Origin: Candidatus Latescibacterota bacterium
GTDB taxonomy: Bacteria; Latescibacterota; UBA2968
Assembly (NCBI GenBank): GCA_965222605.1
Contig: OZ244960.1
Span: forward strand, 5,632,001 to 5,696,000
Direction: 5' to 3'
Length of the DNA: 64,000 bases
The translations under genes were made by a program, and so were the position numbers. The notes beneath the pieces are model-generated. The model made no database searches, had not been told where the DNA came from, and saw nothing but the letters and a program-made list of their open reading frames with translations. Shown one piece after another: positions 2,754 to 46,987 of this stretch. How positions within the stretch are numbered: the stretch's first letter is position 1; each line of letters begins with the position of its first letter.

Positions 2754-5378
2754 ATGGCGACACACACAACACCAGCGATGGAGCAATACGCGCGTTTTAA
2801 GGAGCAGCATCCGGATGCGATTTTGCTATTTCGGATGGGCGATTTTTACGAGATGTTTTACGATGATGCCGTTGTTGCATCTCAGCTTTTGGGTTTGACA
2901 TTGACATCGCGCAACAATGGGCGTGCAGATCGCATCCCACTGGCAGGTGTTCCGTATCACGCGCTGGATACCTATCTCGCAAGACTCATCAGAGCCGGAA
3001 AAAAGGTGGCGATTTGCGAGCAGATGGAGCCGCCGCAAAAGGGCAAAAAAGTGGTGCGCCGAGAGGTGGTGCAGGTTGTATCGCCGGGAACGGTAATGTC
3101 CGATGATTTGCTCGATCAGAAGCGCAATAATTACCTCGTGGGCATTTTTGTTTCTGACGATCAATTGGGCATGGCAACAGCGGATTTATCAACGGGAATG
3201 TTCCGGGCATCGGAACGCGCGGCTGATGATTTATGGGAGATATTGGAGCGCGTGGCTCCCGCAGAGGTGCTGGCACCTGAGTCGTGGGCCAAAGACAACG
3301 AAGCCGAGTTTGAAGCGCGGATGCCGGATGCATTGCTCACGCATATAGAAGATTGGCATTTTGGACAGCATTATGCGTACGATGCGCTAAAGGAACATTT
3401 CAAGGTGGCGTCTCTCAAGGGCTTCGGATGCGATGATCTCACCGTTGGGATATGCGCCGCGGGTGGGGTGCTGTGTTATTTGCGCGAAAATCAGAAGGGA
3501 GCCGTATCCCACATTACGCGATTGGCGCGCGAACACACCGGGTCAGTTATGGAACTGGATCTGGTGACACAGCGCAATTTGGAACTGGTTACTACTATTC
3601 AAGAGGGACGGCGCGAGGGCACGCTATTTGGGGTTTTAGATCAGACGTGTACGCCTCAGGGCGCGCGAACGCTGCGTACATGGTTATCACAGCCACTTGT
3701 GGATGTCCGCCGCATTGAAGCGCGCTTAGATGCAGTGCAAGCATTTGTCGAATCCGCGTCGCATCGGGATGAGGCGCGCGAAGCCCTGCGCCGCGTTGGA
3801 GACCTGGAGCGGTTGATGTCCCGAATTTGTTGCAATCGGGCAAATCCGCGCGAGCTTGTGGCTCTTCGGCGGTCTTTAGAAGCGGTTGTTCCCCTCCGAG
3901 AAACCCTGCGTGAATTTCGCGCGGATTTGCTGGCGCGGGCGCGCGATCAGGGTATGCCCGACCTGACAGAGTTGATTGATTTGATCGCTCGCACGCTTGA
4001 AGATGATCCACCCGTTCAGATTAGCGATGGCGGATATATCAGAGCGGGCTATCACAAAGAACTGGATGAATTGCGGGAAATCGCCTCGGGCGGGCGCAAT
4101 TGGGTTGCCAATTTGCAGGCAGATGAACGCGAGAAAACGGGTATCGCGTCGTTGAAGGTGGGGTATAATAAGGCATTTGGATATTATATTGAGGTCACCA
4201 AGGCCAATCAGGATAAGGTGCCCGCGTATTTTGTGCGCAAGCAAACACTGGTCAATGCCGAGCGATATATCACGCCTGAGTTAAAGGATTGGGAGGCGAA
4301 AATTTTGGGCGCTGATGAGCGGGCCAAAGATCTCGAACGCGATTTGTTTGCCGCGTTGCGCGAAGAGGTGGCCGGTTGGGTGGAACCCGTGCAGCGCACG
4401 GCACTATCCGTGGCAACGGTAGATGTGCTGGGTACTTTGGCCGAGGTGGCGTCCTCCAATGATTATGTGCGTCCTCAGGTGGATGATAGCGTGCGTATTG
4501 ATGTGAAAGAAGGCCGACATCCCGCGGTTGAACAGTTGCTTCCGGGCGGTAATTTTGTGCCCAATGATTTGACGACTGATGGCGAAAACGATCAAATTCT
4601 GCTGATTACCGGTCCAAATATGTCGGGGAAATCGACGATTTTGCGCCAGACCGGGTTGATTGTGCTTTTGGCACAGGTCGGCAGTTTTGTACCGGCGCGC
4701 GAAGCGCGTATTGGGATGGTGGATCGCATTTTTACACGGGTGGGTGCATCCGATAATCTGGCGCGGGGCGAGAGTACGTTTTTGGTGGAGATGAATGAGG
4801 CGGCGAATATTTTGAATAATGCGACGCCGAAAAGTCTGGTGCTTTTGGACGAAATTGGACGCGGGACGAGTACGTTTGACGGGCTGAGCATTGCGTGGGC
4901 AATGACGGAGTATTTGCACAATGCCGAACAGATTCAGCCGCGGACGTTGTTTGCGACGCATTATCACGAGTTGACAGAATTGGAGGATTTGCTGCCGCGG
5001 GTGGTGAATTACAGCGTTGCCGTGCGCGAGTCGGGCGATACCATCGCGTTTTTGCATAAATTGGTGCCGGGCGGGTGCGATCACAGCTACGGTATTGAGG
5101 TGGCGCGCCTGGCCGGGATGCCAGCAGAGATGATTGCGCGTGCAAAGGAGATTTTGACTCGACTGGAGCAAAACGATCTGTCGGTGGGATCAAAACCCCA
5201 ACCCGATCGCGTGAAGGAGAACGGGCAGATGCCTCTGTTTGCGCCAGCAGCAGAAGTAAAGGTTGAAACGAAAGATCACCCGATGCTGTCTGAGTTGCGC
5301 GATTTAGACATCGCCCATCTCACGCCGGTTGAGGCGCTGGTAAAATTGGATGCGTGGAAGCGGGCGTTGGAAGAATGA
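2754..5378 (+). CDS. mutS: DNA mismatch repair protein MutS
   Basis: TPAMEQY, FRMGDFYEMF, GPNMSGKST, STFLVEM, DEIGRGTSTFDG, SYGIEVARLAG. Confidence 0.98.
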   Translation: MATHTTPAMEQYARFKEQHPDAILLFRMGDFYEMFYDDAVVASQLLGLTLTSRNNGRADRIPLAGVPYHALDTYLARLIRAGKKVAICEQMEPPQKGKKVVRREVVQVVSPGTVMSDDLLDQKRNNYLVGIFVSDDQLGMATADLSTGMFRASERAADDLWEILERVAPAEVLAPESWAKDNEAEFEARMPDALLTHIEDWHFGQHYAYDALKEHFKVASLKGFGCDDLTVGICAAGGVLCYLRENQKGAVSHITRLAREHTGSVMELDLVTQRNLELVTTIQEGRREGTLFGVLDQTCTPQGARTLRTWLSQPLVDVRRIEARLDAVQAFVESASHRDEAREALRRVGDLERLMSRICCNRANPRELVALRRSLEAVVPLRETLREFRADLLARARDQGMPDLTELIDLIARTLEDDPPVQISDGGYIRAGYHKELDELREIASGGRNWVANLQADEREKTGIASLKVGYNKAFGYYIEVTKANQDKVPAYFVRKQTLVNAERYITPELKDWEAKILGADERAKDLERDLFAALREEVAGWVEPVQRTALSVATVDVLGTLAEVASSNDYVRPQVDDSVRIDVKEGRHPAVEQLLPGGNFVPNDLTTDGENDQILLITGPNMSGKSTILRQTGLIVLLAQVGSFVPAREARIGMVDRIFTRVGASDNLARGESTFLVEMNEAANILNNATPKSLVLLDEIGRGTSTFDGLSIAWAMTEYLHNAEQIQPRTLFATHYHELTELEDLLPRVVNYSVAVRESGDTIAFLHKLVPGGCDHSYGIEVARLAGMPAEMIARAKEILTRLEQNDLSVGSKPQPDRVKENGQMPLFAPAAEVKVETKDHPMLSELRDLDIAHLTPVEALVKLDAWKRALEE
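5285..5370 (+). repeat. mutS 3' end, copy 1 of a degenerate direct repeat (copy 2 at 9901-9985)
   Basis: cccatctcacgccggttgaggcgctggtaaaattggatgcgtggaagcgggcgttgg vs cccatctcacgccagttgaagcgctggtaaaattagatgcgtggaagcaggcgttgg. Confidence 0.9.
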
Positions 5379-5394
5379 TTTGGAGATAGATGAA

Positions 5395-5763
5395 ATGGTA
5401 ACCGTTGATTTGCGGAAGGAAGCAAGACAGATTCTCGATGGGCTTTCCGATGAGAGTTTGGAGGTGGTAGTCAAGTTGCTGAGTTCTCTCAAAGATCGAG
5501 AGTGTCCCAAACGGACTGATCTGTTGTCAATCTATCCGTGGGTGCGTTACCTATCCGATGCGGAATGCAACGAATTTTTCGAGGAACTCTCAAATGCCGC
5601 AAAGGACAATGGTACAGGTGTTGATGAAGTGGTCAACGCCTGGCGGGAGACAGCAGAAATTCTCGCCGCCCCTGACACAATGGCCGACATTGCCGAATCA
5701 GAAAAACAACTCGCAAATGGTGAGGGGGTTTCTTGGGACAGGGTGAAGCAAAACGCAATATAG
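5395..5763 (+). CDS. small protein, antitoxin-like (orphan)
   Basis: ggag RBS at 5381; C-terminal AWRETAEILAAPDTMADIAESEKQLANGEGVSW resembles Phd/YefM-type antitoxin tails; no adjacent toxin. Confidence 0.5.
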   Translation: MVTVDLRKEARQILDGLSDESLEVVVKLLSSLKDRECPKRTDLLSIYPWVRYLSDAECNEFFEELSNAAKDNGTGVDEVVNAWRETAEILAAPDTMADIAESEKQLANGEGVSWDRVKQNAI

Positions 5764-5804
5764 GCTTTTTTGACCATCTTTTAGTATTGTGATTCGAGAA
5801 ATAA

Positions 5805-8800
5805 ATGGCAGAGCATCAGGAAGAAAAACAAGTCCTAACAGCAGATCCCAAGCGTCAAGCAAATGACGCGCTAAGGGGATACGTCTATCAAATCTGGCAC
5901 AGTGTGCATGCTTGGATCAGCCTTGATGAAGATGAAATCCTCTATCTGGAAGGAGCGGAAGACTTTGACCAGGTATCAGATGACACTGCTACGGCAGTGC
6001 AAGTCAAAGACACGCAACACAAGATTACGCTCAGATCTCAGGAAGTGAATGACGCGATTAGTCACTATTGGGATTTGCAAGCCAATCATCCTGATCTGAG
6101 TGTGAAATTTCGTTTTCTCACCCGATCTAAGATTGGTGCGGAACGAGGTAATCCATTTGGAAAAGGACAGATGGGTCTTCATGTATGGAGCCATTGTTCG
6201 AGTGATGAAGCAGCTATCACAAAAATCTCCAAATTTTTACAAAATGAAGGGAAAATATCAAAGGAAGTAGATGATTTTCTGAAAAATTCGACACCTCAAG
6301 AAATTTATGAACGTCTCATTGAACCTATTTCTTGGGAGACAGATAGTAAAGAAGCCAGTTTTGTTGAGAAATCCATAAGTGATAAACTGATTCTTCATGG
6401 TCATCAATACGGAATCCCACCATCTGCTGCCAGCAAAGTTGTTGATCATCTTATCAAAGAAGCCTTGCTGGTCGCAACACAAAAGGAAAAACGCGAGCTT
6501 ACCCTAGTGCGTTTTCTCGAAATTTTTGAGGAGAAAACAACTCAAAGGGTTCCAATTCAGCATTTACAGGCACTACAAATGCAGACCACAATGGCGGATT
6601 CCTTTAGAGCATTATCCATGGGGGGTTCGTCTGATATTACTATTCAATCTCAGTCTCGCATACTAACGACTATCCCACCCCTTTATCCCGATGTTACTCC
6701 AAGAAAAGATTTGCTCACAAGCATCCAGGCTCAACTCCAATCAGAGGGTATAGCTGTAATCCAGGGAGGATCGGGAAGAGGGAAGACCACACTCGCAAAC
6801 TTGACCGCAAGTGCTCTAAGCGGTTCATGGTTTTGGTTGAATTTCCCTAATAGTGATTCATCACAGAATGTCCAACTTTTACAGCAACTTGCTATTGCAG
6901 TAAGTAATCAATCCTCACCGGTCAACATCGTCCTTGATGACCTGAACTTACAACCTCAAGAGTTGCGGCAGTATGAAGAAATTTTGGGTGTCATCGTTTA
7001 TAGGGTAAGGGAACGTGGTGCAAAATTGTTGATCACAAGCCAAAATAAGCTACCCAATAATCTCATCCGTCGCCTCGGTATACCACAGTCTGTATCCATC
7101 CATGTTCCTGACTTTACCATATCCGAAATTGAGCAATTTGCACAACAATTGGGATGCCCCCCTGATCGCGCAAATCCTTCGGCAAAATTGATTCAATTCC
7201 ATACCGGAGGGCATCCGAGACTGGTACACGCTCGACTCGATCAATTAAGAGAGACAGACTGGCAGCAATATAAAAACGAAAGTATCTTGCAAACACCTCC
7301 AGAAGTGATAGAAGAGCGTGAAGAAGCGCGACAATTGCTTATAGACTTGCCAGAAGATCAGCGAGAATTTCTCTATAGGCTTAGTTTGCTATCTACCGCA
7401 TTTAGGAAAGATTATGCACACAACATTGGCGAGATACCAGAATCCATACCCTATCCAGGTGATGTTTTTAGCCAACTGGTCGGTCCTTGGATAGATCCAG
7501 TAAATGAAACATACTACACAATCTCCCCTTTGTTGGATAACGCGGCCAAGCAGGTTTGGTCGGAAAGCAAGATAAATGACCTCCACACCCAGATTGCAAA
7601 TGCAGTCCTCAAAGCAACGGATCTAACCACAATAGAAGCGCGGGCTGTTCTCGTACATAGTATGCAAGGACAGAACCAAAAAGGTCTTACTGCTATTCTT
7701 CAGGCATTGCTTGCCACGCCAGAGAGCAAGTGGTACCAACTTAGCCAAGAATTCTCATGGTTGATACACGTCAAAATCGACCCCTCTAAAAAATTATTTA
7801 TTGGGGACGCCTTTATAAATCATCTATTTCGGTCATTGCAATATCGCATTGCGGTTGAGGTGGAACCTGAGTTTGCGCCGAAGATACTTGAAATTTGGGA
7901 TAAAGAAATCCAGCCATACGAGCCGCATAAGTCATATCTGCTGTGTCGCCTAACGCTGGCGACACAGGCATTGGTGTATTGTCAAGTGCCACTATCAGTA
8001 AAACAGATGGTAGGCTATCTCAAAGAAATTATTGATATAAAAGACTATGATAAAGAGGTACAAGAAATATATGGTAACTTTGAGGGACAATTAGAAGAAC
8101 CTGGAACTGATAAAGCCAATTTTTTGAGCACCTTATTTAGCTTTATCTTGGCGCGCCCTCCTATCTATGCTCCAGACCTCAGCGACCTTATTGATGCACT
8201 GGATGAGATTCAACCTAACCATAGGGCTTTATTATTAGCTAATTTCGAGAATGACGGCACTGATTCTCGGATTTTGGTTGATGGTATCTGGGTGGGGGAA
8301 TCAGGCCTTAAGCAGCCCAATTGGACAAGATGCCTTCAAGTATATGACAAACTAATTGAAAGAACCATCGATTGGGGCTATCCTCATATTGCTGCGACAG
8401 TTGCAAGACGTAAAGCCATCATCCATAATGAATACTTGCACGACCCGGATACTGCCTATAAAGTTCTTCAAGATATGGAAACAACAGTGGGGATATCATC
8501 AGTAATAGAAGAAGGACGGGCTGCAGTCTATTTTTATCATAACCATTACAAAGAAGCACTCAATATTTACGAGCGTATTCTCTCGGAATGGGACCCATCT
8601 TCAAAAAAGTTAGGCTTGTTACCTTCAAATTGGTGTCGTCAAGCTGCTATCTGTGCTGCTCATTTGGGTAATTGGGAAAAAGCGGCTACCTTCTTTGAAG
8701 ATGGGGCAAAAAGAGCTAAAGAGAATTATGGCACTGAACAATATATTGGTTTATATGCAGATGCGGGATTCGCGCAGTTTAAGGCAGGCAATGTCCGGGA

Positions 8801-9881
8801 TAGTCTGAATTTGTTGAGTGTGGCACTACAAGAATTTGATATGCTTCCTCAAGATGATACAGATGTTGGATATTTTACATTAAAAAAACTTTTAGGATAT
8901 TCAATAACCTGGTTGGCACAACAAAATAAAAAGAATAAAATCAAATCAGAAGAACCTCCACCAGGCTTCTGCAGTGATCCTGCCAGGTCTGACGAAATTA
9001 TGAACTACCCAAATTTTCCTATACAATATGCGTGGCTTCATTTAGCTCAAGTAGAGTATCAATTCAATTTAGGAATGACAATTTTTGAGCAGGCATTACA
9101 GGTTATAGACCAAAATGTATATCCAGTATTAAGATCGTCCCTTGTTTTCCTCAAAGCACAGCAGGACTTTAGAAACAAGACCTTTGATGAACTTCCACAA
9201 CGTATGTGTCAATTAGCGGATGCATATGTCTCAGCACAGAAGCATGAACAAAGTGGAAAAGGAATAGAAGAAAAGGGAGTTTATGTTGTATCTACCGCTG
9301 AGTTATCCAATTTCGCCTCTGTCGAGAACATCATTGATATGCTGGTAGCAGCCCTTCTTGTTCAACTGTCAACAAATAGAGATACGAATGAGATTTTGTC
9401 TATATGGCATGCGAACTCGTCAGAGTTACCTGTACAAAAAAATATGACTATTGCTCTTGATCTGATTGAATCAATGTTATTTGGAGAAGAGAAGAATGCT
9501 CTGGCAGTAATGAGAACAAAAGAAGCCAAAAAAGAAGATCGAATTATAGCATCATTAAAAATAATTCATAATACGAAAATAGATCCACAACATCTTTTTT
9601 CTGCTCACACACTTATTACGACTTCTCTCATTGATCAAAGCTGGGGCGAGTATATTGTGACAGATTTAGCAGAACTCCTTTCGAAACAATGGCTAAAAAA
9701 AATAGAATTTCAAGCAATCTTAAATATGCCTATGATTACAGTGCCTCAGATAGAGCAAGCCTGCAACAGTAGTGAGGCTGGAAAGAAAAAAATCGGTCAA
9801 ATTTTACTCGCGGCACATCAAGCTGTCTCAGTCCAATTATCTCCTGATATTTTACAGCAGTTTCGCAGTTGGGTAGAATGA
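5805..9881 (+). CDS. putative antiviral STAND NTPase (Avs-like): N-terminal PD-(D/E)xK/Cap4-like nuclease, P-loop NTPase, helical/TPR-like C-terminus
   Basis: ALRGYVYQ..EGAEDFD..VQVK nuclease motif; Walker A GGSGRGKT; Walker B IVLDD; GGHPRLV (GxP); long helical C-terminus; visibly AT-richer than mutS. Confidence 0.72.
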   Translation: MAEHQEEKQVLTADPKRQANDALRGYVYQIWHSVHAWISLDEDEILYLEGAEDFDQVSDDTATAVQVKDTQHKITLRSQEVNDAISHYWDLQANHPDLSVKFRFLTRSKIGAERGNPFGKGQMGLHVWSHCSSDEAAITKISKFLQNEGKISKEVDDFLKNSTPQEIYERLIEPISWETDSKEASFVEKSISDKLILHGHQYGIPPSAASKVVDHLIKEALLVATQKEKRELTLVRFLEIFEEKTTQRVPIQHLQALQMQTTMADSFRALSMGGSSDITIQSQSRILTTIPPLYPDVTPRKDLLTSIQAQLQSEGIAVIQGGSGRGKTTLANLTASALSGSWFWLNFPNSDSSQNVQLLQQLAIAVSNQSSPVNIVLDDLNLQPQELRQYEEILGVIVYRVRERGAKLLITSQNKLPNNLIRRLGIPQSVSIHVPDFTISEIEQFAQQLGCPPDRANPSAKLIQFHTGGHPRLVHARLDQLRETDWQQYKNESILQTPPEVIEEREEARQLLIDLPEDQREFLYRLSLLSTAFRKDYAHNIGEIPESIPYPGDVFSQLVGPWIDPVNETYYTISPLLDNAAKQVWSESKINDLHTQIANAVLKATDLTTIEARAVLVHSMQGQNQKGLTAILQALLATPESKWYQLSQEFSWLIHVKIDPSKKLFIGDAFINHLFRSLQYRIAVEVEPEFAPKILEIWDKEIQPYEPHKSYLLCRLTLATQALVYCQVPLSVKQMVGYLKEIIDIKDYDKEVQEIYGNFEGQLEEPGTDKANFLSTLFSFILARPPIYAPDLSDLIDALDEIQPNHRALLLANFENDGTDSRILVDGIWVGESGLKQPNWTRCLQVYDKLIERTIDWGYPHIAATVARRKAIIHNEYLHDPDTAYKVLQDMETTVGISSVIEEGRAAVYFYHNHYKEALNIYERILSEWDPSSKKLGLLPSNWCRQAAICAAHLGNWEKAATFFEDGAKRAKENYGTEQYIGLYADAGFAQFKAGNVRDSLNLLSVALQEFDMLPQDDTDVGYFTLKKLLGYSITWLAQQNKKNKIKSEEPPPGFCSDPARSDEIMNYPNFPIQYAWLHLAQVEYQFNLGMTIFEQALQVIDQNVYPVLRSSLVFLKAQQDFRNKTFDELPQRMCQLADAYVSAQKHEQSGKGIEEKGVYVVSTAELSNFASVENIIDMLVAALLVQLSTNRDTNEILSIWHANSSELPVQKNMTIALDLIESMLFGEEKNALAVMRTKEAKKEDRIIASLKIIHNTKIDPQHLFSAHTLITTSLIDQSWGEYIVTDLAELLSKQWLKKIEFQAILNMPMITVPQIEQACNSSEAGKKKIGQILLAAHQAVSVQLSPDILQQFRSWVE

Positions 9882-9900: not shown

Positions 9901-9985
9901 GCTGTCTGAATCAGATGATTTAGACTAACCCATCTCACGCCAGTTGAAGCGCTGGTAAAATTAGATGCGTGGAAGCAGGCGTTGG
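9901..9985 (+). repeat. diverged copy of mutS 3' end
   Basis: aligns to 5285-5370; encodes HLTPVEALVKLDAWKQALA*. Confidence 0.9.
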
Positions 9986-10037
9986 CATAGGACTCTTAAC
10001 ATGGCTCTTGAAACGGTGTGAGAATGGAGGAAAAATT

Positions 10038-10940
10038 ATGGAAGAGATAGCTTTGCCAAAGTTGCGCGTGAGTAGAAAAGAAGCAAATAATAAAATAAAA
10101 GCGCAAATTGAGAAAGGGGAATTGCTCTGTAACCGGCAGATATGTTCAGAAGAAGAATTGGAGAATGTAGGTATAGCAGCCAACCATTGGTCAAGATACA
10201 ACAGAGATCTCTTAATAAAGCTATTTGATAACTTATCGATAGACGATGAATACAAAAATTTCCATTACTATAGATTGAGTCATCAAGATATAGCGAACCT
10301 GATGTTGGATGGGGTTCCCATACCAGATTTTCAAGATCAAGTAAGTGAATACCAAAGAGATATGACAGATAGCATCAATAGTCTAAAGGGAATCTGTTAC
10401 CGACTTGAATTATTCGATGAAGTATTAGACAATGTCCCTTACACCTTGGCCAATAAAGGGTTTTCAGACAATCCCACTCGCACCTTCGGTGACCATGTCT
10501 TCATCGTGCATGGACATGACGAGGCCGCCAAACATGCCATCGCTAGATTCGTGGAGAAGTTTAACTTAAAGGCTACCATACTTGATGAGCAAGCAAGTAA
10601 AGGCCAAACGGTTATTGATAAGTTTGAAGAAAATGCAGACAATGTGGGGTTTGCAATCGTCTTACTGACGCCTGACGATGTTGGCGCACCAAAAGATCAA
10701 ATAGATGAACCTAAACCTCGAGCACGTCAGAACGTTATATTAGAACTCGGCTATTTTTTGTGTGGATTAGGGCGTGAGCGTGTATGTGTTCTTTACAAAA
10801 AAGGAGTTGAACTACCTTCAGATATTCAGGGTATAGTCTATGTACCCATGAATAATCCCAATGAATGGCAACTGAAATTAGCTACAGAAATGAAGCAGGC
10901 AGGATTACCGATTGATCTGAACAAACTTATAGAGGCATAA
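10038..10940 (+). CDS. TIR-like domain nucleotide-binding protein (CAP12/Pycsar TIR family)
   Basis: VFIVHGHD..FAIVLLTPDD..RARQNVILELGYF..LPSDIQG; ggagg RBS before ATG 10038. Confidence 0.85.
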   Translation: MEEIALPKLRVSRKEANNKIKAQIEKGELLCNRQICSEEELENVGIAANHWSRYNRDLLIKLFDNLSIDDEYKNFHYYRLSHQDIANLMLDGVPIPDFQDQVSEYQRDMTDSINSLKGICYRLELFDEVLDNVPYTLANKGFSDNPTRTFGDHVFIVHGHDEAAKHAIARFVEKFNLKATILDEQASKGQTVIDKFEENADNVGFAIVLLTPDDVGAPKDQIDEPKPRARQNVILELGYFLCGLGRERVCVLYKKGVELPSDIQGIVYVPMNNPNEWQLKLATEMKQAGLPIDLNKLIEA

Positions 10941-10971
10941 AAAAAGGCCGATGTATATCGGCCTTTTTTTT
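10939..10971. terminator. bidirectional intrinsic terminator
   Basis: A7-ggccgat-gtat-atcggcc-T run. Confidence 0.88.
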
Positions 10972-10973
10972 CA

Positions 10974-11165
10974 CTATTCATTGCTGATCCCGTGTTCCTC
11001 GAGCCAGGCTTTGAGGGGCGCATCTTCGGGAGTGGGGGAGGTGTAGCCGCAACCGCCGGAATAGCTGACGCCGAGGAGTTGTTTTTGTATGGGCGTGCAG
11101 CGGTCGAGATAGTGTTCTACCTGCATGTCGTCGCGGGGGCGAAGCCAGCGGTAGGAGTAGCCGTA
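10974..11165 (-). pseudogene. orphan 3' end of the PhyH-family gene (copy of 13823-14014)
   Basis: 192-bp colinear copy, 14 differences; encodes YGYSYRWLRPRDDMQ...HGISNE*. Confidence 0.92.
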
Positions 11166-11402: not shown

Positions 11403-11846
11403 TCATCCAAAGTCACCCTGGAGGTATCCTTTGGCGGCAGCCTTAACACGGGCGACTTCTCCTTTGTGAAGAAGGGCAAGCGGTTCCGCTCCATCAAGCG
11501 CGTCGTTTGGTGCTGTAAGCCAATACCACATTTCATAGGCGTCATCGAATAGCTTGGTAATACGATCAAGCCTTTTGATAGGCTGTCCATGTTTGTCGAA
11601 TTGTCCAGCAGGAAAAACATACTCGTGCTTGGCATTTTCCCATCCGACTATATGTCCTTTCTTCAGCCAGTCGTGAACAACCTGGTGGTGATTGAGACCA
11701 GCGAGGGCGACAAGTTGAGAGGAAGTTAGCAGGTCTTCCATCTCTTCCATCTCTTGGGTATTTGCCTCGATCAATGCGTTCGCCTGTTGCTCGTCAATTA
11801 GACATGGTTTGGCACCCTCAATAGTTTCTATATTTTGCGTATTCAT
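11403..11846 (-). CDS. antitoxin Xre/MbcA/ParS-like
   Basis: WYWLTAPNDALDGAEPLALL toxin-binding motif; ggag RBS before ATG 11846. Confidence 0.7.
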   Translation of the reverse strand: MNTQNIETIEGAKPCLIDEQQANALIEANTQEMEEMEDLLTSSQLVALAGLNHHQVVHDWLKKGHIVGWENAKHEYVFPAGQFDKHGQPIKRLDRITKLFDDAYEMWYWLTAPNDALDGAEPLALLHKGEVARVKAAAKGYLQGDFG

Positions 11847-12142
11847 TTTCGATTCTCCGGTCATTGTGTGCTTATTCCACAACTTCCCGGCACATGGGAA
11901 ATATAGCCCCTTTTGGATGTCTGTCAACGCTTGACGCGCAGCATGGGCTGATTCACTTTTCGCCTTCGGGTGACAAAAATGACGACACCATATGCGCCGA
12001 GATGCACGATAATATCTACTTTGCACATTATGAATACGAAACAAGATGACAGGGATGTATGAGGCGACCCGTCAACGTCTTTTTGAGCCTTTTTTCACGA
12101 CAAAGGACGCCGACCGCGAAATCGTGTCTTTATTTTCACCTC

Positions 12143-13699
12143 TCACGCAGACATGATCTCAAAGGTCGTTATATTGCGGGTATCCTTGCTGAACTCTACG
12201 GCGATCAGGTGGATCGGCTGATCCAGACTCCGATATTTGTCCGCATAGCCTTTCTGTCTCAGTTGCGCCATCGCAGTCCCTTCCGGTGCCAATTCCACCA
12301 CCTTAAACTCGAACAGATACACATTACCGTTGAAACGAATTGCCATGTCCAGACGCCCCTGGCTGCTGCTGTCCTCTACAACGATGTCCAATCCCACCGA
12401 TGCGAAGTAGGAGTAGAAAACGCTGGCGTAGTAGCCTTCGTAGTTCGCTATGTCGTTGTTCGTGTGCCACTGGTAGGGAATGCTGGCGAAGAATGCTTTG
12501 AATAGACCCTCCAGACTCGCAAAATCATTGACCAGAAGCAGGTCATACAGACGGGCGCGGTGCTCCGCGCGCTGTGATGGGTCGCCAGTCAGATGATTCA
12601 ACAAGCTCCTATTCAGGCTCTGGCGCACTTCTCGATTCGGATAGGATAGCCGATAGTACATCTCTCCACCGCGCGGTTCGGTATGGTGGATGGTTAGATA
12701 CCCGGTCTGGAACAGCAGGGCTTCGGTGGCGATGTGGTCAACATCAAAAGCCGACAGCAAATCATCACTGCCCAGCATGTTGTCCAGAGCCAGCGCACCG
12801 ACCCCGCGCGATAGTAGCGTCTCGATCAGAAATGTCGGCGTACCTGTCTCGAACCAGTAGGCTTCGAAGCTGTGCCTTCTGAACAGCAAGAGGATGTCGA
12901 AGGGGTTATAGACCTTCTCCTGTCCCCGCCAGCTATAGCCGTTGTACCAGTGCCTTATCTCGTCCCTATCCAGACCCGGCAGTTCTGGCGCAAATACCGT
13001 GTCGAGGTCCTCCTCGGTGTAGCCGCAGATGGCGGAATATTGTGGGTCAATGGTGATGTCGGTGAGGTTGTTGAGGCCAGAGAAAAGATGCACCTTGGAG
13101 AACTTACTGACACCAGTGAGGAATGCGAACTTAATATGAGCATCGCTATCCTTGATGGTCGCGTATAGACCGCGCAGAAAGTCGCGGTTGGCGCACGCGG
13201 TCTCCGGTACTTCCAGAGCATCCAGAATCGGCTTATCGTATTCATCCACAAGCACGACAACACGCTGCTCGCCCTGCCGATGCAATACCCGGATCAGATC
13301 GCCAAAGCACTCCGGTGCAGTATCGTAACGCGGCGCAATCCCGGCTTCTTCTGCTATCGTGAGCAGTTGCGTCATCACATTCGTATGCAGATAGGACGCT
13401 TCTTTGAAATTGCCGCTACCAAAGCTCAAGCGCACAACGGGATAGCGAACCTGCCAGTCCCAGTGGTCGTGGATATGAAGCCCTTCGAACAGCGGTTCAT
13501 TGCCCTCAAACAGTTCCTTCAACGTGTCCAGAAACAGGCTTTTGCCAAAGCGACGTGGACGCGATAAAAAATAGTGCGAGCCCTCGTCCATCAGTCGCCG
13601 CATGTGGGCAGTTTTATCGACATAGTAGCAGTTTTCCTCCCGAATTTTTCGGAAGGTCTGAATGCCAATAGGCAACTTGCGTCTGTCTGATATGCCCAT
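12143..13699 (-). CDS. AAA-ATPase-like protein with C-terminal PD-(D/E)xK nuclease
   Basis: LPIGIQTF, YYVDKT, SRPRRFGKS, VDEYDKP, GRLDMAI..FEFK. Confidence 0.9.
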   Translation of the reverse strand: MGISDRRKLPIGIQTFRKIREENCYYVDKTAHMRRLMDEGSHYFLSRPRRFGKSLFLDTLKELFEGNEPLFEGLHIHDHWDWQVRYPVVRLSFGSGNFKEASYLHTNVMTQLLTIAEEAGIAPRYDTAPECFGDLIRVLHRQGEQRVVVLVDEYDKPILDALEVPETACANRDFLRGLYATIKDSDAHIKFAFLTGVSKFSKVHLFSGLNNLTDITIDPQYSAICGYTEEDLDTVFAPELPGLDRDEIRHWYNGYSWRGQEKVYNPFDILLLFRRHSFEAYWFETGTPTFLIETLLSRGVGALALDNMLGSDDLLSAFDVDHIATEALLFQTGYLTIHHTEPRGGEMYYRLSYPNREVRQSLNRSLLNHLTGDPSQRAEHRARLYDLLLVNDFASLEGLFKAFFASIPYQWHTNNDIANYEGYYASVFYSYFASVGLDIVVEDSSSQGRLDMAIRFNGNVYLFEFKVVELAPEGTAMAQLRQKGYADKYRSLDQPIHLIAVEFSKDTRNITTFEIMSA

Positions 13700-13822
13700 C
13701 TCTCATCTCCAGATTTTGATGCCAGTACGGTCGCCCTGCTCGATACAGTATTATACCGATTTCGCTATCTATTTGGAAGTCAAAACTTTTCATTATGGAT
13801 TTTGTTGCATGTCTAATACTGA

Positions 13823-14668
13823 CTATTCACTACTGATCCCGTGTTCTTCGAGCCAGGCTTTGAGGGGCGCATCTTTGGGAGTGGGGGAGGTGTAGCCGCG
13901 GCCGCCAGAGTAGCTGACGCCGAGGAGTTGTTTTTGGATGGGCGTGCAGCGGTCGAGGTAGTGTTCAACTTGCATGTCGTCGCGGGGGCGAAGCCAGCGA
14001 TAAGAGTAGCCGTAGAAGAGGACGCGGCGCGGTTCCTTCCAGTAGTTGGTACTGGCCGAGTGCCATATTCGGCGGTCAAAAAATACGGCTGATCCAGGTG
14101 GCACGAGCACTGGGGTAGCATCTTTGTGCGGCGCGTTGCGATCTTCTCCTGGAAATGTGTTTTGCGTTTGGCTTTTGGGAAGGACGTAGAAATTGCCGCG
14201 GCCCTGTTCAGTCGTATCGGTGAGAAAAAAGCCGATTTTGAGGGAGATCCTGGGACGCGGGTTCATGTCAAAATCTTGATTGATGCGGCCGCTGTCCTGG
14301 TGAAAGCCGAGGCCAGGTCCGTCTTTTTCGAATGTTTTGTGCGGTTCTGCAGGGGGTGTTACGGTCATGTGGGTATGGTAGAGTTGGATGTGCCAGCCCA
14401 GGATGCCCCACACTTTGGGAAATGTTTTGTACCAGTCGAGCAAGGGCAAGAAGCGGTCGTCCTTGCCAATGAAGTCGTAGTGGTTGATGCGCGCTGTGGC
14501 ACTTTTGTCCATCCGAGCGCGTTCTTCTTTATCTACGCGATCCACTGCAACGACAAGATCGCGGACCATGTCGGGTGGCAGGGCGTCTGGAACGATGAAA
14601 TAGCCATCCCGTTTGAATTTGCGCGCTTCTTCTTCTGTTAGACAATAATCGAGACATTTGGGGTGCAT
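13823..14668 (-). CDS. phytanoyl-CoA dioxygenase (PhyH) family 2OG-Fe(II) enzyme
   Basis: FKRDGYFIV, FHQD, GSAVFFDRRIWHS. Confidence 0.85.
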   Translation of the reverse strand: MHPKCLDYCLTEEEARKFKRDGYFIVPDALPPDMVRDLVVAVDRVDKEERARMDKSATARINHYDFIGKDDRFLPLLDWYKTFPKVWGILGWHIQLYHTHMTVTPPAEPHKTFEKDGPGLGFHQDSGRINQDFDMNPRPRISLKIGFFLTDTTEQGRGNFYVLPKSQTQNTFPGEDRNAPHKDATPVLVPPGSAVFFDRRIWHSASTNYWKEPRRVLFYGYSYRWLRPRDDMQVEHYLDRCTPIQKQLLGVSYSGGRGYTSPTPKDAPLKAWLEEHGISSE

Positions 14669-27552: not shown

Positions 27553-28555
27553 CGTCTTTCTCCTGAGCCTGGTTCGGTTCCCTTTCCCATGGCGCACGCA
27601 ACGTCGGCCTCTCAGTCAGGAATTCCAGCCCCGCGCGCAGCGACCCATTCGCGTTGAACCACGCGTGGAAGCCCTGCCCATCAATGCCGTTGCCGTCATA
27701 GCGGTCGCGACGGGTAGAACTCGCCTTGCCTTCCCGCATGCCCCAGCCCATCCAGCCGTGGCCCGATTCTTCCATCATCTGGATGGTCCAGCGGGCACAA
27801 TCTGCGCGCTTTGCATCGTCAAGGCAGCCTGGAATGGTCTCGTTGGAGAGCATTGGCTTTTTATGACGCTGCTGAACGGCGGCACATACTGCCAACATCT
27901 CGCGCTGTTGCTCGGGCGTGCGCCCGTAGGGGTGACAGCACAGCACATCGCAGAGCGGCGCGAGTCGGTCCATTTGCTCCTCGATTTGCAGTACGCCAAT
28001 GGTGATTGGCTGCTGCGCTCCGCACGCGCGCACTGTCTCGGCCACCCGCGCCAGCCACTCGATTTCTTTGGCGTTGGAATCGGCATCCAGACGCGGGTAT
28101 TGAGGTTCATTGCAGAGGTCCCAGACGAGGACGCGCTCGTCATTGGCAAGAGGCGCGACCAGATCGCGAACATAGGCCAGCTTTGGGCTCCAATTCCTGT
28201 GCAGATCTTCAATATAGGTCCCGCCGTAGTCGTAGGTGTGGTTGTGCCACCGGTTGAACAGGCATGGCATGGTCCGCATGCCAAGTTCATCGATGGCCGC
28301 CACAGCATCCATGAACGACGCGTGGACAGCGTCCGGGTCTGCCATCCATGCTGTGAACTCGATCCACAGACGGATGCAATTGGCGTGCGTCTGGTTTGCA
28401 AGCGCGGCCTCTTCGCGGAATCGGTCCGGGCAATAGTCCCACCAGGCCTGCTCAATGCGGGCGCCCCAGGAGGGTATGATGTTGAATCCGCGGAGCCAGG
28501 CGTAGTCCTGGTAGTGATGGAGCCTCACATTTGCTGGTTCTGCCATTGCTTCCAT
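27545..28555 (-). CDS. glycoside hydrolase, clan GH-A (GH5-like)
   Basis: LRGFN, WDLCNEP acid/base, SNET nucleophile. Confidence 0.75.
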   Translation of the reverse strand: MEAMAEPANVRLHHYQDYAWLRGFNIIPSWGARIEQAWWDYCPDRFREEAALANQTHANCIRLWIEFTAWMADPDAVHASFMDAVAAIDELGMRTMPCLFNRWHNHTYDYGGTYIEDLHRNWSPKLAYVRDLVAPLANDERVLVWDLCNEPQYPRLDADSNAKEIEWLARVAETVRACGAQQPITIGVLQIEEQMDRLAPLCDVLCCHPYGRTPEQQREMLAVCAAVQQRHKKPMLSNETIPGCLDDAKRADCARWTIQMMEESGHGWMGWGMREGKASSTRRDRYDGNGIDGQGFHAWFNANGSLRAGLEFLTERPTLRAPWEREPNQAQEKDDV

Positions 28556-28561
28556 CCTTTT
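28371..28561 (-). repeat. 5' end of GH gene, copy 1 of 191-bp direct repeat (copy 2 at 41666-41856)
   Basis: colinear near-identical sequence. Confidence 0.9.
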
Positions 28562-31596: not shown

Positions 31597-31624
31597 TGAT
31601 TTTACCCCCGTTGTTCGTATTGAG

Positions 31625-41286: not shown

Positions 41287-41635
41287 TGTCCAATCTCGGT
41301 TAGGCTCGAATGCGGCTCTCTCTCAATCTGGCAAAGATTTGTTCTGAGCAGCACTCTATTTGGTGAAGCCGCGAGGAGAGAAGTGGTTGGAGATATCCAG
41401 TGATCTAAATGTGCCACTTGTTAGAGTAGTAATTGCTTAAACATCTTCAGTATAAAATTTAATTCAGAAAAGCACAAGCGAATCCAAATCTCTTTGGGAT
41501 TCCCAAACCTTTTGTCGTGAATGTATGCGATTCCCTCTTCTGTCAAGTCCAGTTTTGTATTCCGAACATGTTCGCAGATGCTTCCTGTGGAGGCATCGTT
41601 TCTAATCAAATACCACCGCGTGCGCTTGTGGGCTT

Positions 41636-41662
41636 TCAATCGACAATGGGCAAATGAACCGT
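41636..41662 (-). repeat. copy of the last 9 codons of the Gfo gene (45938-45964)
   Basis: tcaatcgacaatgggcaaatgaaccgt vs ctaatcaacaatgggcaaatgaaccgt; both read TVHLPIVD*. Confidence 0.8.
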
Positions 41663-41665
41663 AGG

Positions 41666-41856
41666 CGGATGCAATTGGCGTGCGTCTGGTTTGCAAGCGC
41701 GGCCTCTTCGCGGAATTGGTCCGGGCTATAGTCCCACCAGGCCTGCTCGATGCGAGCGCCCCAGGATGGTACGATATTGAATCCGCGGAGCCAGGCGTAG
41801 TTCTGGTAGTGATGGAGTCTCACATTTGCTGATTCTGCCATTGCTTCTATCCTTTT
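41666..41856 (-). pseudogene. truncated 5' copy of GH gene 27545-28555
   Basis: MAESANVRLHHYQNYAWLRGFNIVPSWG...ANCIRL then breaks off. Confidence 0.9.
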
Positions 41857-44157: not shown

Positions 44158-44183
44158 TGGTCACATCCTCTTGGCGCTCTTAC

Positions 44184-44392
44184 TTAGATCATGCCCGTCA
44201 CTTGCATCGCGACTCTGGCAATCTCAGAGAGTGCGCATTCGCCGGTGACGCGATCGCCGAGTTTCAGGCTGTAGAGGGCAATCACCATCGTCCCGACAGG
44301 GGATTCGACGAAGCCGACATCATTGATTACACTCCGATTTGAGCCGGTTTTGGAACCCCAGCGATAGGTCCTGGAGGTCGGCACATATCGGC
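44184..44392 (-). pseudogene. orphan 3' end of class A beta-lactamase-like gene (copy of 45110-45318)
   Basis: ~210-bp colinear copy encoding RWGSKTGSN...MQVTGMI*. Confidence 0.92.
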
Positions 44393-44656
44393 CTAACTCG
44401 CAACTGATTTCCCTCGTATGTACTCAATTAAACGGACATTCACTAGAGTTTCAATCGATACGCCTTGTGCTTGGGCACTCTGCCAGAGTTCTTCTGCTAT
44501 TTCAGGTAGTATCGCAACGCGAACTGCTCGCTTGTGTGGCGTATCAAAGCGAAACCATTCCCCATCATCTTCCATAAAATCAGCCGTATCCAGTTTATCC
44601 CAAAATGTAGCTTCCTCTTCATAACTCTCGAATTTTGGGACTTGTAACTCTTTCAT
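44393..44656 (-). CDS. antitoxin (BrnA/CopG-like)
   Basis: PKFESYEEEATFWD motif; overlaps toxin stop. Confidence 0.8.
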   Translation of the reverse strand: MKELQVPKFESYEEEATFWDKLDTADFMEDDGEWFRFDTPHKRAVRVAILPEIAEELWQSAQAQGVSIETLVNVRLIEYIRGKSVAS

Positions 44657-44925
44657 TTTCTCAGCCTCCTGAAGTTTTGTTTTTCACGGTCGGTCATATC
44701 TCGAGCGGTAATGGATTTATAAACTGTACCGCTAAGATGTTCCAAGACGACAAATAGATACCGCCCATCCGCTGTCTGTCCATAAAGCCGATACCGGTTA
44801 CGTCCTTGACGACGAGCTAAATGTAATGGATCCCCACAAACTTCCCAGACTTCATCTGGTTCCACATTGTGTTGAGCAATATGTTCAATGCGATAGTCAT
44901 CCCAATCCAATCTGCTGATAAACAT
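44653..44925 (-). CDS. BrnT-family toxin
   Basis: WD..HIAQHNV..GQTADGRYLFVV..ITARDM. Confidence 0.82.
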   Translation of the reverse strand: MFISRLDWDDYRIEHIAQHNVEPDEVWEVCGDPLHLARRQGRNRYRLYGQTADGRYLFVVLEHLSGTVYKSITARDMTDREKQNFRRLRK

Positions 44926-44984: not shown

Positions 44985-45074
44985 ACCCATGATTAGATGC
45001 ACCGGGATACGGGTACCTTTAATACAGACTTGTCCGTGACAAACTCTGGGATCAATGGCAATACGTTCCTGCAT
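44985..45074 (-). pseudogene. DUF433 fragment
   Basis: MQERIAIDPRVCHGQVCIKGTRIPV then loses similarity. Confidence 0.65.
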
Positions 45075-45109
45075 TTTTTATCTCCATTAAAAGGACTTTC
45101 ACTTCTTAC

Positions 45110-45901
45110 CTATATCATGCCCGTCACTTGCATCGCGGCCCTTGCAATCTCGGAGAGCGCGCATTCGCCGGTGACGCGATCGCCGAGTTCCCGGCTGTAG
45201 AGCGCAATCACCATTGTCCCGACAGGGGATTCGACGAAGCCGACATCATTGATTACACCCCGATTCGAGCCGGTTTTGGAACCCCAGCGATAGGTCTTGG
45301 AGGTCGGCACATATCGGCCGATGCGGCGACCATTCTGTTGCAGGGTCAAGGTGGTGAGCATGGCCTGACAGGCTGCGGGGGATGCGGCCTGATCGTCGAG
45401 GATTGTCTTGACGACGGCAGTGTAGTCATTGGGTGTAGCCCAATTTTCCTGTTCCCCTTCAACCGCGAGGCGCCCGCGCATGGGACGTCCGAGAGAGGAG
45501 GCGGTCATACCGAGTTCTCGCATTGTCGCGTTGATGCGATCCATTCCGGCCACTTCAATCAATATGTTGGTGGCGGTGTTGTCGCTGATGGACATCATCA
45601 AGTAGAGGAGATCTCCAAACGACAGTTGCAGCCCGGTATGCATGTGTCGCAGCACACCACTGCCGGGGGATTTATCTTTAGAGCGGATGATATATGTGTC
45701 GTCGAGCGCGAGTGTGCCGCGATCAATAGCTCTGTAGATCTCGATCATGATCGGGATTTTAACTGTGCTGGCCGCCGGAAACTGATGATCACCCCGTGAG
45801 GCCCAATTCTCCCCCCGAGGCGAAATCACACTGACGCCGATCGTGCCGTGCGATTCGTACGTTTTAACCGCTTGTTCTATCCTACTCCAGTCTGTGGTCA
45901 T
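45110..45901 (-). CDS. class A beta-lactamase-like serine hydrolase
   Basis: AASTVK (SxxK), SDN, KTG; no signal peptide. Confidence 0.88.
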   Translation of the reverse strand: MTTDWSRIEQAVKTYESHGTIGVSVISPRGENWASRGDHQFPAASTVKIPIMIEIYRAIDRGTLALDDTYIIRSKDKSPGSGVLRHMHTGLQLSFGDLLYLMMSISDNTATNILIEVAGMDRINATMRELGMTASSLGRPMRGRLAVEGEQENWATPNDYTAVVKTILDDQAASPAACQAMLTTLTLQQNGRRIGRYVPTSKTYRWGSKTGSNRGVINDVGFVESPVGTMVIALYSRELGDRVTGECALSEIARAAMQVTGMI

Positions 45902-45937
45902 GGTGACGCTCCTGGTAATATCCAGGTCAAGCGGCCT

Positions 45938-46987
45938 CTAATCAACAATGGGCAAATGAACCGTTGCGCCGCGTTCGACAGAGCGGAATACTGCTTCGGT
46001 GAATTCCATGTATTTCACGCCTTGATAGAAGGTTGATTCGGCGGGTTTGCCGGTTTTGATCATGTCGATAAAATCCGCCTCAACCGTCCATTCGCGTCTG
46101 TCGGATGCGGGGACATCCAATTCCTTCAATGCGCTATCACCGGACTTGGCGCCCAATATCCGCTGCTCGTCCAAAACGGGGGAGGTTTCGTAAACAAGTG
46201 TGCCGTCCGTACCGTAAATTTCAATGCATTCACTCGGTGCGTGATGCGCGGTGCCAGAAAAGAGATGGACCGCAGTTGCACCGCTTTCCATTTGCGCCAA
46301 AATATTCACCGTGTCCGGACGATCAACTGGTCCCATGCCATCCTCTGTGAAACGCTCGGTGACATAGGCCTCTGCATGTGCGGATACGGATTTTGTATAA
46401 CCACACCAGCGATGTACAAATTCCACAAGCATGCCCACACTCATGGTATTTAAGCCGGAAAAATGACCCATTTGCCGCCAGTGTAGCGGCGTATCGGGAT
46501 CAATGCCCCCAGGCGTCATTGAGCGCACGATGATATTGCGAATATCGCCAACATATCCCTCGGCGATCAGCCGCTGCATAAACCAGTCGCCTTTTAATGC
46601 GTGAGGTGGCTGGCATATCTGGTGCGCGAGTTCTGATTCCATTGCTGCGGCATACATGGCCTTTGCTTCGCGCAAATTCATTGCCATGCGCGCCTGTACG
46701 AACGCATGCTTGCCCGCATTGAGGGATTTGATTACAAACTCGCAGTGTTTATACGGCCATGTACCAATCATCACGGCATCGATGTCATCTCGCGCAATGA
46801 GCGCGTAGGGATCGGTCATCAGGTCGGGACGCAACCCAAATTCAGCCGCGATTTTGCCGCCACTCGCTTCACTGCGGTTGCAAATTGCCACGACCTCGGC
46901 ATCGTCAATTTGAGCCAGGCCCGGAAAGTGGCGGGTGCGAAAAATACCGCCCGCACCAATAATACCAATGCGAATTTTATTTGCCAT
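45938..46987 (-). CDS. Gfo/Idh/MocA oxidoreductase
   Basis: IGIIGAGG; close paralogue of 25182-26219. Confidence 0.88.
   Translation of the reverse strand: MANKIRIGIIGAGGIFRTRHFPGLAQIDDAEVVAICNRSEASGGKIAAEFGLRPDLMTDPYALIARDDIDAVMIGTWPYKHCEFVIKSLNAGKHAFVQARMAMNLREAKAMYAAAMESELAHQICQPPHALKGDWFMQRLIAEGYVGDIRNIIVRSMTPGGIDPDTPLHWRQMGHFSGLNTMSVGMLVEFVHRWCGYTKSVSAHAEAYVTERFTEDGMGPVDRPDTVNILAQMESGATAVHLFSGTAHHAPSECIEIYGTDGTLVYETSPVLDEQRILGAKSGDSALKELDVPASDRREWTVEADFIDMIKTGKPAESTFYQGVKYMEFTEAVFRSVERGATVHLPIVD

Follow-up and report, generated by a model that had tools for sequence, protein, structure and literature searches.

Allelic copies of gene 3' ends between cassettes of a Candidatus Latescibacterota bacterium, and a candidate recombinase-free route of insertion

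In a 64,000-nucleotide stretch of a Candidatus Latescibacterota genome (contig OZ244960.1, positions 5,632,001 to 5,696,000; the whole stretch is called the window below; 50.6% G+C, no N), four intact genes are each followed by unrelated cargo and then by a diverged copy of the gene's own 3' end, here termed a tail remnant. The four anchor genes are mutS, a PhyH-family dioxygenase gene (PhyH), a class-A-beta-lactamase-like gene (bla2) and a Gfo/Idh/MocA oxidoreductase gene (Gfo), and none of the four inserts carries an integrase, transposase or resolvase. We consider it marginally probable that the cassettes were added by a recombinase-free, homology-anchored insertion at gene 3' ends that used a linear substrate.

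Tail repeats and their divergence

The four pairs had been described in a first-pass annotation of the window, and self-comparison recovered each of them at the same positions; the identities given to the anchor genes were retained in Pfam searches (MutS domains I-V, PhyH, Beta-lactamase2 and GFO_IDH_MocA). A fifth repeat had been overlooked, in which the 5' end of a GH5-like gene is copied beside the Gfo tail copy. The repeat pairs are as follows.

mutS pair: gene 5285-5370, remnant 9901-9985; 86 nt, 84.9% identity, one 1-nt gap
mutS pair, core: gene 5314-5370, remnant 9929-9985; 57 nt, 93%
PhyH pair: gene 13822-14014, remnant 10973-11165; 193 nt, 92.7%
bla2 pair: gene 45104-45319, remnant 44178-44393; 216 nt, 93.5%
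Gfo pair: gene 45940-45964, remnant 41638-41662; 24 of 25 nt identical
Gfo pair, longer form: gene 45933-45964, remnant 41631-41662; 32 nt at 88%
GH5-like pair: gene 5' end 28368-28561, copy 41663-41856; 194 nt, 93.8%

Self-BLASTN of the window gave E values of 9e-90, 3e-77, 3e-19 and 0.002 for the four tail pairs, and the Gfo 25-mer, at two mismatches or fewer, was present twice in 0 of 100 shuffled sequences; a chance origin of the four pairs is excluded. Dispersed direct repeats of more than 84% identity number five in the whole window, namely the four tails and the GH5-like 5' end. The inserts behind the four anchors measure 0.7-4.6 kb, and the repeats span 86, 193 and 216 nt in mutS, PhyH and bla2 but just 25-32 nt in Gfo. 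As first described, the remnants run to a stop codon, and they do so in frame. In PhyH, bla2 and Gfo this stop has the same position as in the intact gene, whereas the mutS remnant ends at a TAG of its own (9988-9990).

Pooled over the five repeat pairs, the copies differ by 29 synonymous and 16 non-synonymous changes (proportions of sites, pS 0.19 and pN 0.031; pN/pS 0.17). This ratio departs from that expected if both copies were neutral (P = 4e-9) and also from that expected if one copy were decaying in place beside a constrained one (P = 6e-5). The PhyH and bla2 tails (64 and 70 codons) hold 3-5 non-synonymous codon differences each, and the short mutS and Gfo tails hold fewer. Between orthologues of mutS and PhyH in two sister genomes, pS is 0.25-0.27. 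The purifying signature, together with a pS near sister-species level, therefore indicates that the remnants evolved inside working genes of an almost sister-distant lineage, which fits the earlier proposal that DNA was captured from related strains. Judged by these substitution patterns, the tail copies are alleles from diverged lineages and not duplicates decaying in situ.

A skew was seen in the mutS pair, where 8 of the 12 substitutions pair a G of the live copy with an A of the remnant, three of them unique to the window remnant when compared with the two related genomes described below; the sample is too small for interpretation. A diversity-generating retroelement was considered as a source of the repeats and rejected, as no reverse transcriptase was found among the scanned open reading frames (ORFs) and the mismatch spectra of the PhyH, bla2 and GH5-like pairs are mixed, the mutS pair alone being skewed.

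Cassette arrays in the window and in related genomes

The mutS and PhyH genes are convergent, and the interval between their stop codons holds two of the four inserts.

2754..5378, + strand: mutS, intact anchor gene 1 (Pfam MutS_I-V; tail repeat 5285-5370)
5350..5763, + strand: cargo 1a, DUF6247-like small ORF (weak Pfam DUF6247 match, E = 1.3e-3)
5805..9881, + strand: cargo 1b, defence-like 1358-aa protein with an N-terminal LmuA/DUF4297-like domain and TPR repeats
9901..9990, + strand: mutS tail remnant, type B (..ALA*), with its own stop at 9988-9990
10001..10015, + strand: first five codons of a nucleotidyltransferase (MNT) gene, preserved as a relic
9969..10940, + strand: TIR-domain gene (CAP12/PDC-S35-like), likely start 10038
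10941..10972, no strand assigned: bidirectional terminator-like hairpin separating the TIR gene from the PhyH remnant
10973..11165, - strand: PhyH tail remnant, 64 codons in frame, stop 10974-10976
11403..12044, - strand: cargo 2b, 213-aa ORF with a weak Xre/MbcA/ParS antitoxin C-terminal match (Pfam 3.8e-4, NCBIfam 6.1e-5)
12143..13699, - strand: cargo 2a, AAA-ATPase_like and PD-(D/E)XK (PDDEXK_9) protein
13823..14668, - strand: PhyH-family dioxygenase, intact anchor gene 2 (Pfam; tail repeat 13822-14014)

The 1358-aa protein matches LmuA in PADLOC (1.2e-9) and DUF4297 (1.2e-7), with TPR repeats assigned by Pfam; NCBIfam was also scanned. The TIR gene matches Pfam CAP12-PCTIR_TIR (3.9e-40) and PADLOC PDC-S35 (3.6e-71).

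A genome scan with a MutS query returned 80 loci and placed the nearest relatives of the window among Candidatus Latescibacterota metagenome-assembled genomes (MAGs). Two of these, about 90-92% identical to the window over common genes, were compared with it: L001, a short-read MAG, and L002 (OZ242195.1), a single-contig 5.56 Mb chromosome of which 23.5 kb was examined. Gene order at the spot is as follows.

L001: mutS, DUF6247 ORF, terminator, degenerate PhyH remnant of ~23 nt, DUF5615/DUF433 pair, PhyH
L002, positions 1-5: mutS, MNT/HEPN, mutS remnant, DUF6247/PIN, insertion sequence (IS)
L002, positions 6-9: DUF433, PhyH remnant, helix-turn-helix (HTH) gene, 59-nt PhyH remnant
L002, positions 10-13: AAA/PD-(D/E)XK gene, PhyH remnant, DUF5615/DUF433, PhyH

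The interval thus differs among all three genomes and holds variable cassettes without mobility genes, apart from the one IS in L002, where one mutS and three PhyH remnants lie between toxin-antitoxin (TA) cassettes. In L001 the mutS tail occurs once, with the DUF6247 ORF behind it, and the LmuA/TPR gene, the remnant and the TIR gene of the window are all absent.

The mutS tails fall into two types that differ even in their final codons, each with its own downstream cassette. In the window, type A (..ALEE*) is live and type B a remnant; in L002 the roles are exchanged. Stacking is accordingly reciprocal: in the window, mutS with its type A tail is followed by the DUF6247 ORF, the LmuA/TPR gene, the type B remnant, the MNT relic and the TIR gene, and in L002, mutS with a type B tail is followed by MNT/HEPN, the type A remnant and DUF6247/PIN. 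The DUF6247-like ORF starts inside the mutS tail, and this unit of tail and ORF is present in both L001 and L002. The MNT gene of which the window retains five codons is intact behind the type B tail in L002. If the direction of turnover is as we propose below, the TIR gene of the window would be the older cassette that already stood behind the type B tail.

True insertion with long target duplication, in which staggered breaks would be filled in around a fragment and one copy would later be replaced by an allele, would produce the same architecture as that described for restriction-modification (RM) systems in the accessible text of one study, with stop-spanning repeats and no mobility genes (PMC2853133). 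We regard it as improbable, since all pairs examined are 6-15% diverged with a signature of purifying selection, no near-identical pair was found in the window or in L002, and the type A and type B tails differ to their last codons and are each tied to their own cassette in different genomes.

The final residues of MutS themselves vary with the cassette type, as ..ALEE*, ..ALA* or ..ALIQESQHGS* (window 5371-5378; L002 12617-12643), the last of these being found in L002, where the former stop has turned into CAG. Cassette turnover therefore edits the C terminus of a housekeeping protein.

At the PhyH end, the AAA/PD-(D/E)XK cassette of the window (cargo 2a) is also found behind a PhyH remnant in L002, at 84.5% nucleotide identity. 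The PhyH tails of the three genomes are 90-94% identical to one another in a star-like pattern. The same hairpin stands in L001 beside its short PhyH remnant, so the hairpin represents the ancestral downstream context of PhyH. Remnants that lie further from their gene are more decayed: the window mutS remnant has lost 1 nt and acquired stops at its 5' end, the outermost PhyH remnant of L002 combines a 1-nt deletion with the tandem duplication of 16 nt, and the PhyH remnant of L001 is largely deleted. The doubled 16-nt unit in L002 (17748-17779) includes the PhyH stop codon and stands at the end of the outermost remnant; a junction event may have left it as a footprint, or it may reflect simple slippage.

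The entire mutS-PhyH spot is bracketed by a 30-nt inverted repeat (93%) at window positions 2078-2106 and 15065-15094. One copy is intergenic, upstream of an ORF at 2167-2733, and the other lies within a GNAT gene (14708-15205, - strand). In L001 and L002 both sites keep the 25-nt core unchanged (100%), although the DNA around them is only about 91% identical; the repeat could be an inversion site or serve in regulatory pairing.

The other two anchors, bla2 and Gfo, lie further along the window, and the bla2 gene with its nested island itself belongs to the island behind Gfo.

27545..28555, - strand: GH5-like gene, intact (first 194 nt, 28368-28561, copied at 41663-41856)
41631..41662, - strand: Gfo tail remnant, 8 codons plus stop, with TGA replacing TAG
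41663..41856, - strand: copy of the GH5-like 5' end, abutting the Gfo tail remnant
41856-42662, - strand: Gfo island cargo, DUF4037 protein
42796-44157, - strand: Gfo island cargo, PF00144 serine hydrolase/D-aminopeptidase-like protein
44178..44393, - strand: bla2 tail remnant, 69 codons in frame, stop 44184-44186
44393-44656, - strand: cargo 3, CopG/BrnA-type antitoxin (Pfam)
44653-44925, - strand: cargo 3, BrnT toxin (Pfam)
45110..45901, - strand: bla2, class-A-beta-lactamase-like, anchor gene 3 (below the NCBIfam cut-off; tail repeat 45104-45319)
45938..46999, - strand: Gfo/Idh/MocA oxidoreductase, anchor gene 4 (tail repeat 45933-45964)

The BrnT/BrnA insert behind bla2 measures 710 nt in total, and the bla2 remnant starts 1 nt within the BrnA stop codon. 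The Gfo island (4.3 kb) comprises bla2 with the nested island, the PF00144 hydrolase gene, the DUF4037 gene and the truncated GH5-like 5' copy; this island's cargo is not defence-like. That copy is cut at codon 62-64 and is 93.8% identical to the resident GH5-like gene 13 kb away; its joint with the Gfo tail is out of frame, shows 0-1 nt of microhomology and yields a chimeric ORF (41602-41859). The view that the cargo consists of defence/TA arrays consequently applies behind mutS, PhyH and bla2, where it is TA or defence-like, but fails for the Gfo island, which holds ordinary enzymes and a truncated gene.

A link between the Gfo island and the intact GH5-like locus would have been given by a decayed DUF4037 gene in the two ORFs that precede the latter, but these have no similarity to DUF4037 and the idea was set aside. 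The window also contains paralogous Gfo-family genes (25182-26219 and 45938-46999; 58% amino-acid identity) and DUF3604 paralogues (31625-33811 and 37921-40161; about 65% nucleotide identity) in one sulfatase-rich cluster. These duplicates are ordinary paralogy, outside the tail-copy pattern.

Matches in other assemblies, known here from ORF and protein sequences alone, contain the same kinds of junction. Shorter relatives of PhyH gave 104 matches, of which 20 were retrieved for high identity or long contigs and 13 aligned; bla2 gave 23, with 12 retrieved and 10 aligned; and the chimeric ORF of GH5-like 5' end and Gfo tail (GH5'::Gfo) gave 11, with four retrieved. In P0028, a foreign N terminus is joined to the PhyH tail at the same junction as in the outermost remnant of L002; P0053 and P0088 have another junction in common, from PhyH residue 223; and P0057 is a more distant example. 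Five ORFs of 65-73 aa (P0113, P0114, P0115, P0117 and P0119), on contigs of up to 1.28 Mb, consist of the bla2 tail alone and start at residue 198. P0128, which has six member sequences, contains the GH5'::Gfo-tail junction of the window with 74 of 79 residues identical.

None of the five bla2 tail-only ORFs has the K that the live gene, P0109 and P0111 carry at one position; it is R in four of them and in the window remnant, and M (TSMAY) in P0115. Polymorphisms closer to the 3' end (RE/LK) are common to remnants and gene-like sequences, a hint from these alignments that the bla2 remnants may be mosaic. In P0120 and P0124, the first 6-18 residues of bla2 are fused straight to the tail, at residues 196 and 228; these look like internal deletion forms, and one breaks almost at the remnant boundary.

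The first-pass annotation had named strain-chimeric assembly as an explanation that would undo its reading. Repeat pairs alike in divergence (92.7-93.8%) are what would be expected if two co-existing strains of about 93% identity had been joined as one chimeric contig. The two sides of each junction are unrelated, however, leaving no common k-mer by which to join them; the same architecture is present in the single-contig chromosome of L002; and other assemblies contain ORFs, not identical to those of the window, with the GH5'::Gfo, bla2 and PhyH types of junction. An assembly artefact is hardly credible on these grounds.

Junctions and the route of insertion

The internal boundaries of the remnants vary (25-32, 59, ~59-67, 86, 193, 216 and ~227 nt). 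As in the first-pass annotation, no common core sequence was recognized: inspection by eye, without a motif-finding program, found no motif at eight junctions or in the four tails. Two or three PhyH remnants, however, have a boundary at about -227 in common, and every PhyH context diverges at stop +1 to +4. The absence of an integrase from the window held up, none being found among 60 distinct ORFs that tile it with a largest gap of 529 nt. With the 16 ORFs of L002 at 12.6-22.1 kb and four ORFs of L001 included, no integrase or resolvase was found, and IS transposases were the sole mobility genes. One of these, of the IS701 family, lies at 53207-54265 in the window. The tails fold normally (z = +1.18 and -0.96), which rules out attC-like or hairpin spacers. 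Promoter and terminator scans of the islands gave the same counts as shuffled sequences and are uninformative.

Tandem arrays split by copies of a gene's 3' end are a hallmark of accretion at an attachment (att) site. Site-specific recombination in trans, with the tails as att sites and the cassettes as integrase-less derivatives resembling cis-mobilizable elements (CIME-like) accreted in tandem, would also suit the sharpness of the PhyH junction, which in five contexts falls at stop +1 to +4, and the recurrence of the boundary at about -227. Four unrelated tails in one window would nevertheless need four specificities; no motif was seen in common at the eight junctions; internal boundaries lie anywhere between 25 and 227 nt; no integrase was found in the window, the 8.6-kb array of L002 or the L001 locus region; one insert measures just 710 nt and one junction cuts a gene at codon 62-64; and the copies differ along their entire length without an identical core. 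We give this explanation little probability.

In the recombinase-free insertion that we favour, DNA of a relative about 6-7% diverged would enter the cell, bearing the 3' part of the gene and whatever adjoins it there, and would recombine homologously within the resident gene, its far end being joined within the last 25-230 nt of that gene. In founding events this joint would be illegitimate. The clear example is the Gfo/GH5' junction, at which a foreign allele is cut and microhomology amounts to 0-1 nt. From then on, the remnant flanking a cassette could serve as a second homology arm: in a double crossover, the left arm would lie in the gene and the right arm would be the remnant, paired with the live tail of the recipient, which would thereby become a new remnant. 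The gene would remain intact with an imported tail, the new cassette would stand right behind its stop, and the resident's old tail and old downstream genes would be shifted one step outward. Repeats of this process would stack cassettes with the newest beside the gene, and the direct tail repeats would let host recombination delete each cassette or excise it as a circle.

Use of the remnant as a second arm would account for the functional-looking remnants, for boundaries kept across genomes and for the mosaic hint in bla2, and the stronger decay of distal remnants fits the newest cassette adjoining the gene. We infer the direction (import of the proximal tail), the recombination pathway and the route of DNA entry.

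The same product would result from a circle pathway, in which recombination between tail and remnant excises a circle of tail plus cassette that, after transfer, integrates by a Campbell-type single crossover in the tail. For this, direct repeats 190-230 nt long and 93% identical would suffice as substrates; the cassettes are compact; and the boundary at about -227 in the two PhyH remnants of L002, and probably in those of L001 and P0028, fits a fixed tail segment. The Gfo repeat, at 25-32 nt, is near the lower limit for RecA-dependent crossover, and its insert terminates in a truncated gene. Moreover, the AAA cassette has unlike distal ends and remnant lengths (193 nt in the window, 59 nt in L002), and two cargos with the same -227 boundary would be unexplained by one circle type. 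The circle pathway is unlikely, if less so than recombination in trans.

Several observations weigh against insertion of linear DNA as proposed above. Mismatch repair disfavours recombination between DNA diverged by 6-7%. For homology-facilitated illegitimate recombination (HFIR), the Gfo/GH5' joint, with 0-1 nt of microhomology, would fit the non-homologous side, but no clear breakpoint was found within mutS or PhyH when identity to L001 and L002 was followed along both genes in a sliding window. The PhyH gene tail of the window is 92.2% identical to the L002 remnant that precedes the AAA cassette, compared with 92.7-93.8% for other tails, and no co-clustering of tail and cargo was seen in the PhyH tail identities. 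Among the 75 further mutS loci that have 1 kb or more of sequence behind the gene, a downstream tail copy was found at one, in L002; a 16-nt match downstream of mutS in L068 was taken as chance. The arrangement is therefore a habit of this lineage and not of mutS genes generally, and the generality first proposed for the capture route is limited.

Some junctions, finally, are more precise than random illegitimate joining predicts. Five downstream contexts diverge 1-4 nt past the PhyH stop; cargo ends 0-63 nt past the stop of its last gene at six of eight junctions; and the two L002 PhyH remnants that share the boundary at about -227 carry different cargo, a boundary that is probably also that of the L001 and P0028 remnants. 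The native spacers are short, a 32-nt terminator ancestrally between the convergent mutS and PhyH genes and about 26 nt behind bla2, and therefore only insertions that duplicate the junction spare both neighbours. From these arrangements, selection can account for the precision in part, the boundary at about -227 lying outside that account. ORFs without a Pfam match, for example 35189-36472 and 30778-31656, could conceal a novel recombinase, and a ComEA-type helix-hairpin-helix domain, recognized by its sequence profile, is the sole, weak hint of DNA uptake. This domain belongs to a protein at 55734-56522 with an HSDR_N-like N terminus (TIGR00426, 65.7 bits, cut-off 53.1).

Two further TA-type loci lie near the end of the window. 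A Gp49/HigB-like and HigA-like antidote pair at 51884-52472 is followed by a 200-aa ORF and the IS701-family transposase gene, and window self-BLAST found no tail or head copy at 51884-54265, on the 5' side of another Gfo-family gene (50642-51919). The second locus, at 62524-64000, consists of a DUF5615 (PIN-like) gene and an ORF of 380 aa in which DUF433 is matched over two stretches, with local repeats at 63269-63450. It belongs to the TA family of the cassette beside PhyH in L001 and L002; the window edge precedes any remnant.

We tentatively put forward a further reading, which we hold to be doubtful, in which tail-flanked cassettes are a distinct recombinase-free mobile unit (a 'knock-in cassette') that uses the gene 3' end as attachment site and spacer and leaves insertion, stacking and excision to host recombination. 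Integron-like ordered TA/defence arrays behind housekeeping genes would then be common in this Latescibacterota lineage. In a bolder form, breaks within the resident tail, possibly made by nucleases of the cassettes (such as the PD-(D/E)XK or DUF4297 proteins), would trigger homing-like copy-in, which would account for the clustering of joints in the last 230 nt.

Known systems and significance

Of the known systems, the nearest formal parallel is insertion with long target duplication. The accessible text of Furuta, Abe and Kobayashi (2010; PMC2853133) describes it for RM genes: the repeats often extend across a stop or start codon, the target gene is thereby kept intact, and a life cycle of amplification and release via the repeats is proposed. 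As in the part of that work available, the units here are small, lack mobility genes and are flanked by long, variable direct repeats of the target (PMC2853133). The inserts are shorter than 20 kb, the repeats exceed 30 bp (25-32 nt for Gfo), and L001 has a single mutS tail. The parallel fails on cargo and on the allelic nature of the repeats: RM genes and initially identical copies there, TA/defence-like genes or enzymes and alleles 6-15% diverged here. Stacked arrays with several remnants, whose order is reversed between genomes, are a further difference.

Orphan arrays of Rhs, contact-dependent inhibition (CDI) and type VI secretion (T6SS) genes arise by C-terminal or sequential displacement, for which HFIR was proposed in the available portion of Kirchberger et al. 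(2017; PMC5361080). As described there, a new module is placed beside a conserved gene and the old 3' end, along with its partner gene, is pushed downstream in an ordered array without an integrase, and the proposal likewise combines a homology anchor on one side with an illegitimate joint on the other. What is displaced in those accounts is the variable toxin domain, and immunity genes make up the arrays (PMC5361080). In contrast, the anchors here are ordinary genes (MutS, PhyH, Beta-lactamase2 and Gfo/Idh/MocA) with conserved, toxin-free tails, and the cassettes are independent.

HFIR itself, which de Vries and Wackernagel and Prudhomme et al. are said to have described in 2002, reportedly couples a one-sided homology anchor to a non-homologous joint. 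The Gfo/GH5' junction fits this form. Laboratory HFIR usually deletes recipient DNA past the anchor, whereas the joint here lies upstream of the anchor's end, so that the tail is duplicated and nothing is lost; in addition, several of the junctions look inherited or re-used rather than fresh.

The mutS-PhyH interval, with different cassettes in three related genomes, resembles a minimal mobile element, in which variable cassettes between conserved flanking genes are subject to homologous exchange (Saunders and Snyder 2002, as defined in the accessible text of PMC3787668). Exchange in that sense replaces content (PMC3787668, same text), whereas insertion here adds to it, with tail remnants left behind as scars or spacers. 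Integrons and tandem accretion offer a parallel in their ordered arrays, compact cassettes and repeated spacer, with the newest cassette probably beside the anchor. Unlike integrons, the arrays have no integrase, and their spacers are the coding end of the neighbouring gene, specific to each array and without attC-like folding. Integrase elements that target gene 3' ends differ as well, no integrase gene having been found within or beside the inserts. A 2026 study of Photorhabdus ascribes TA islets to recombination at flanking core genes, and the portion of its text that is available contains neither 'direct repeat' nor 'illegitimate' (PMC13617665). In the open-access literature searched, no account was found of TA/defence arrays separated by tail remnants of housekeeping genes.

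How small defence/TA islets without mobile-element genes arrive is an open practical question, and allelic tail remnants are legible scars that mark each insertion, its order and a donor relative about 6-7% diverged. If the proposed route is true, cassettes can enter tightly packed gene pairs with neither neighbour damaged, the upstream gene retaining its full coding end and the downstream gene its native upstream sequence, and tail remnants could serve as a genome-wide marker with which to count and date recombinase-free gene gain in uncultured bacteria.

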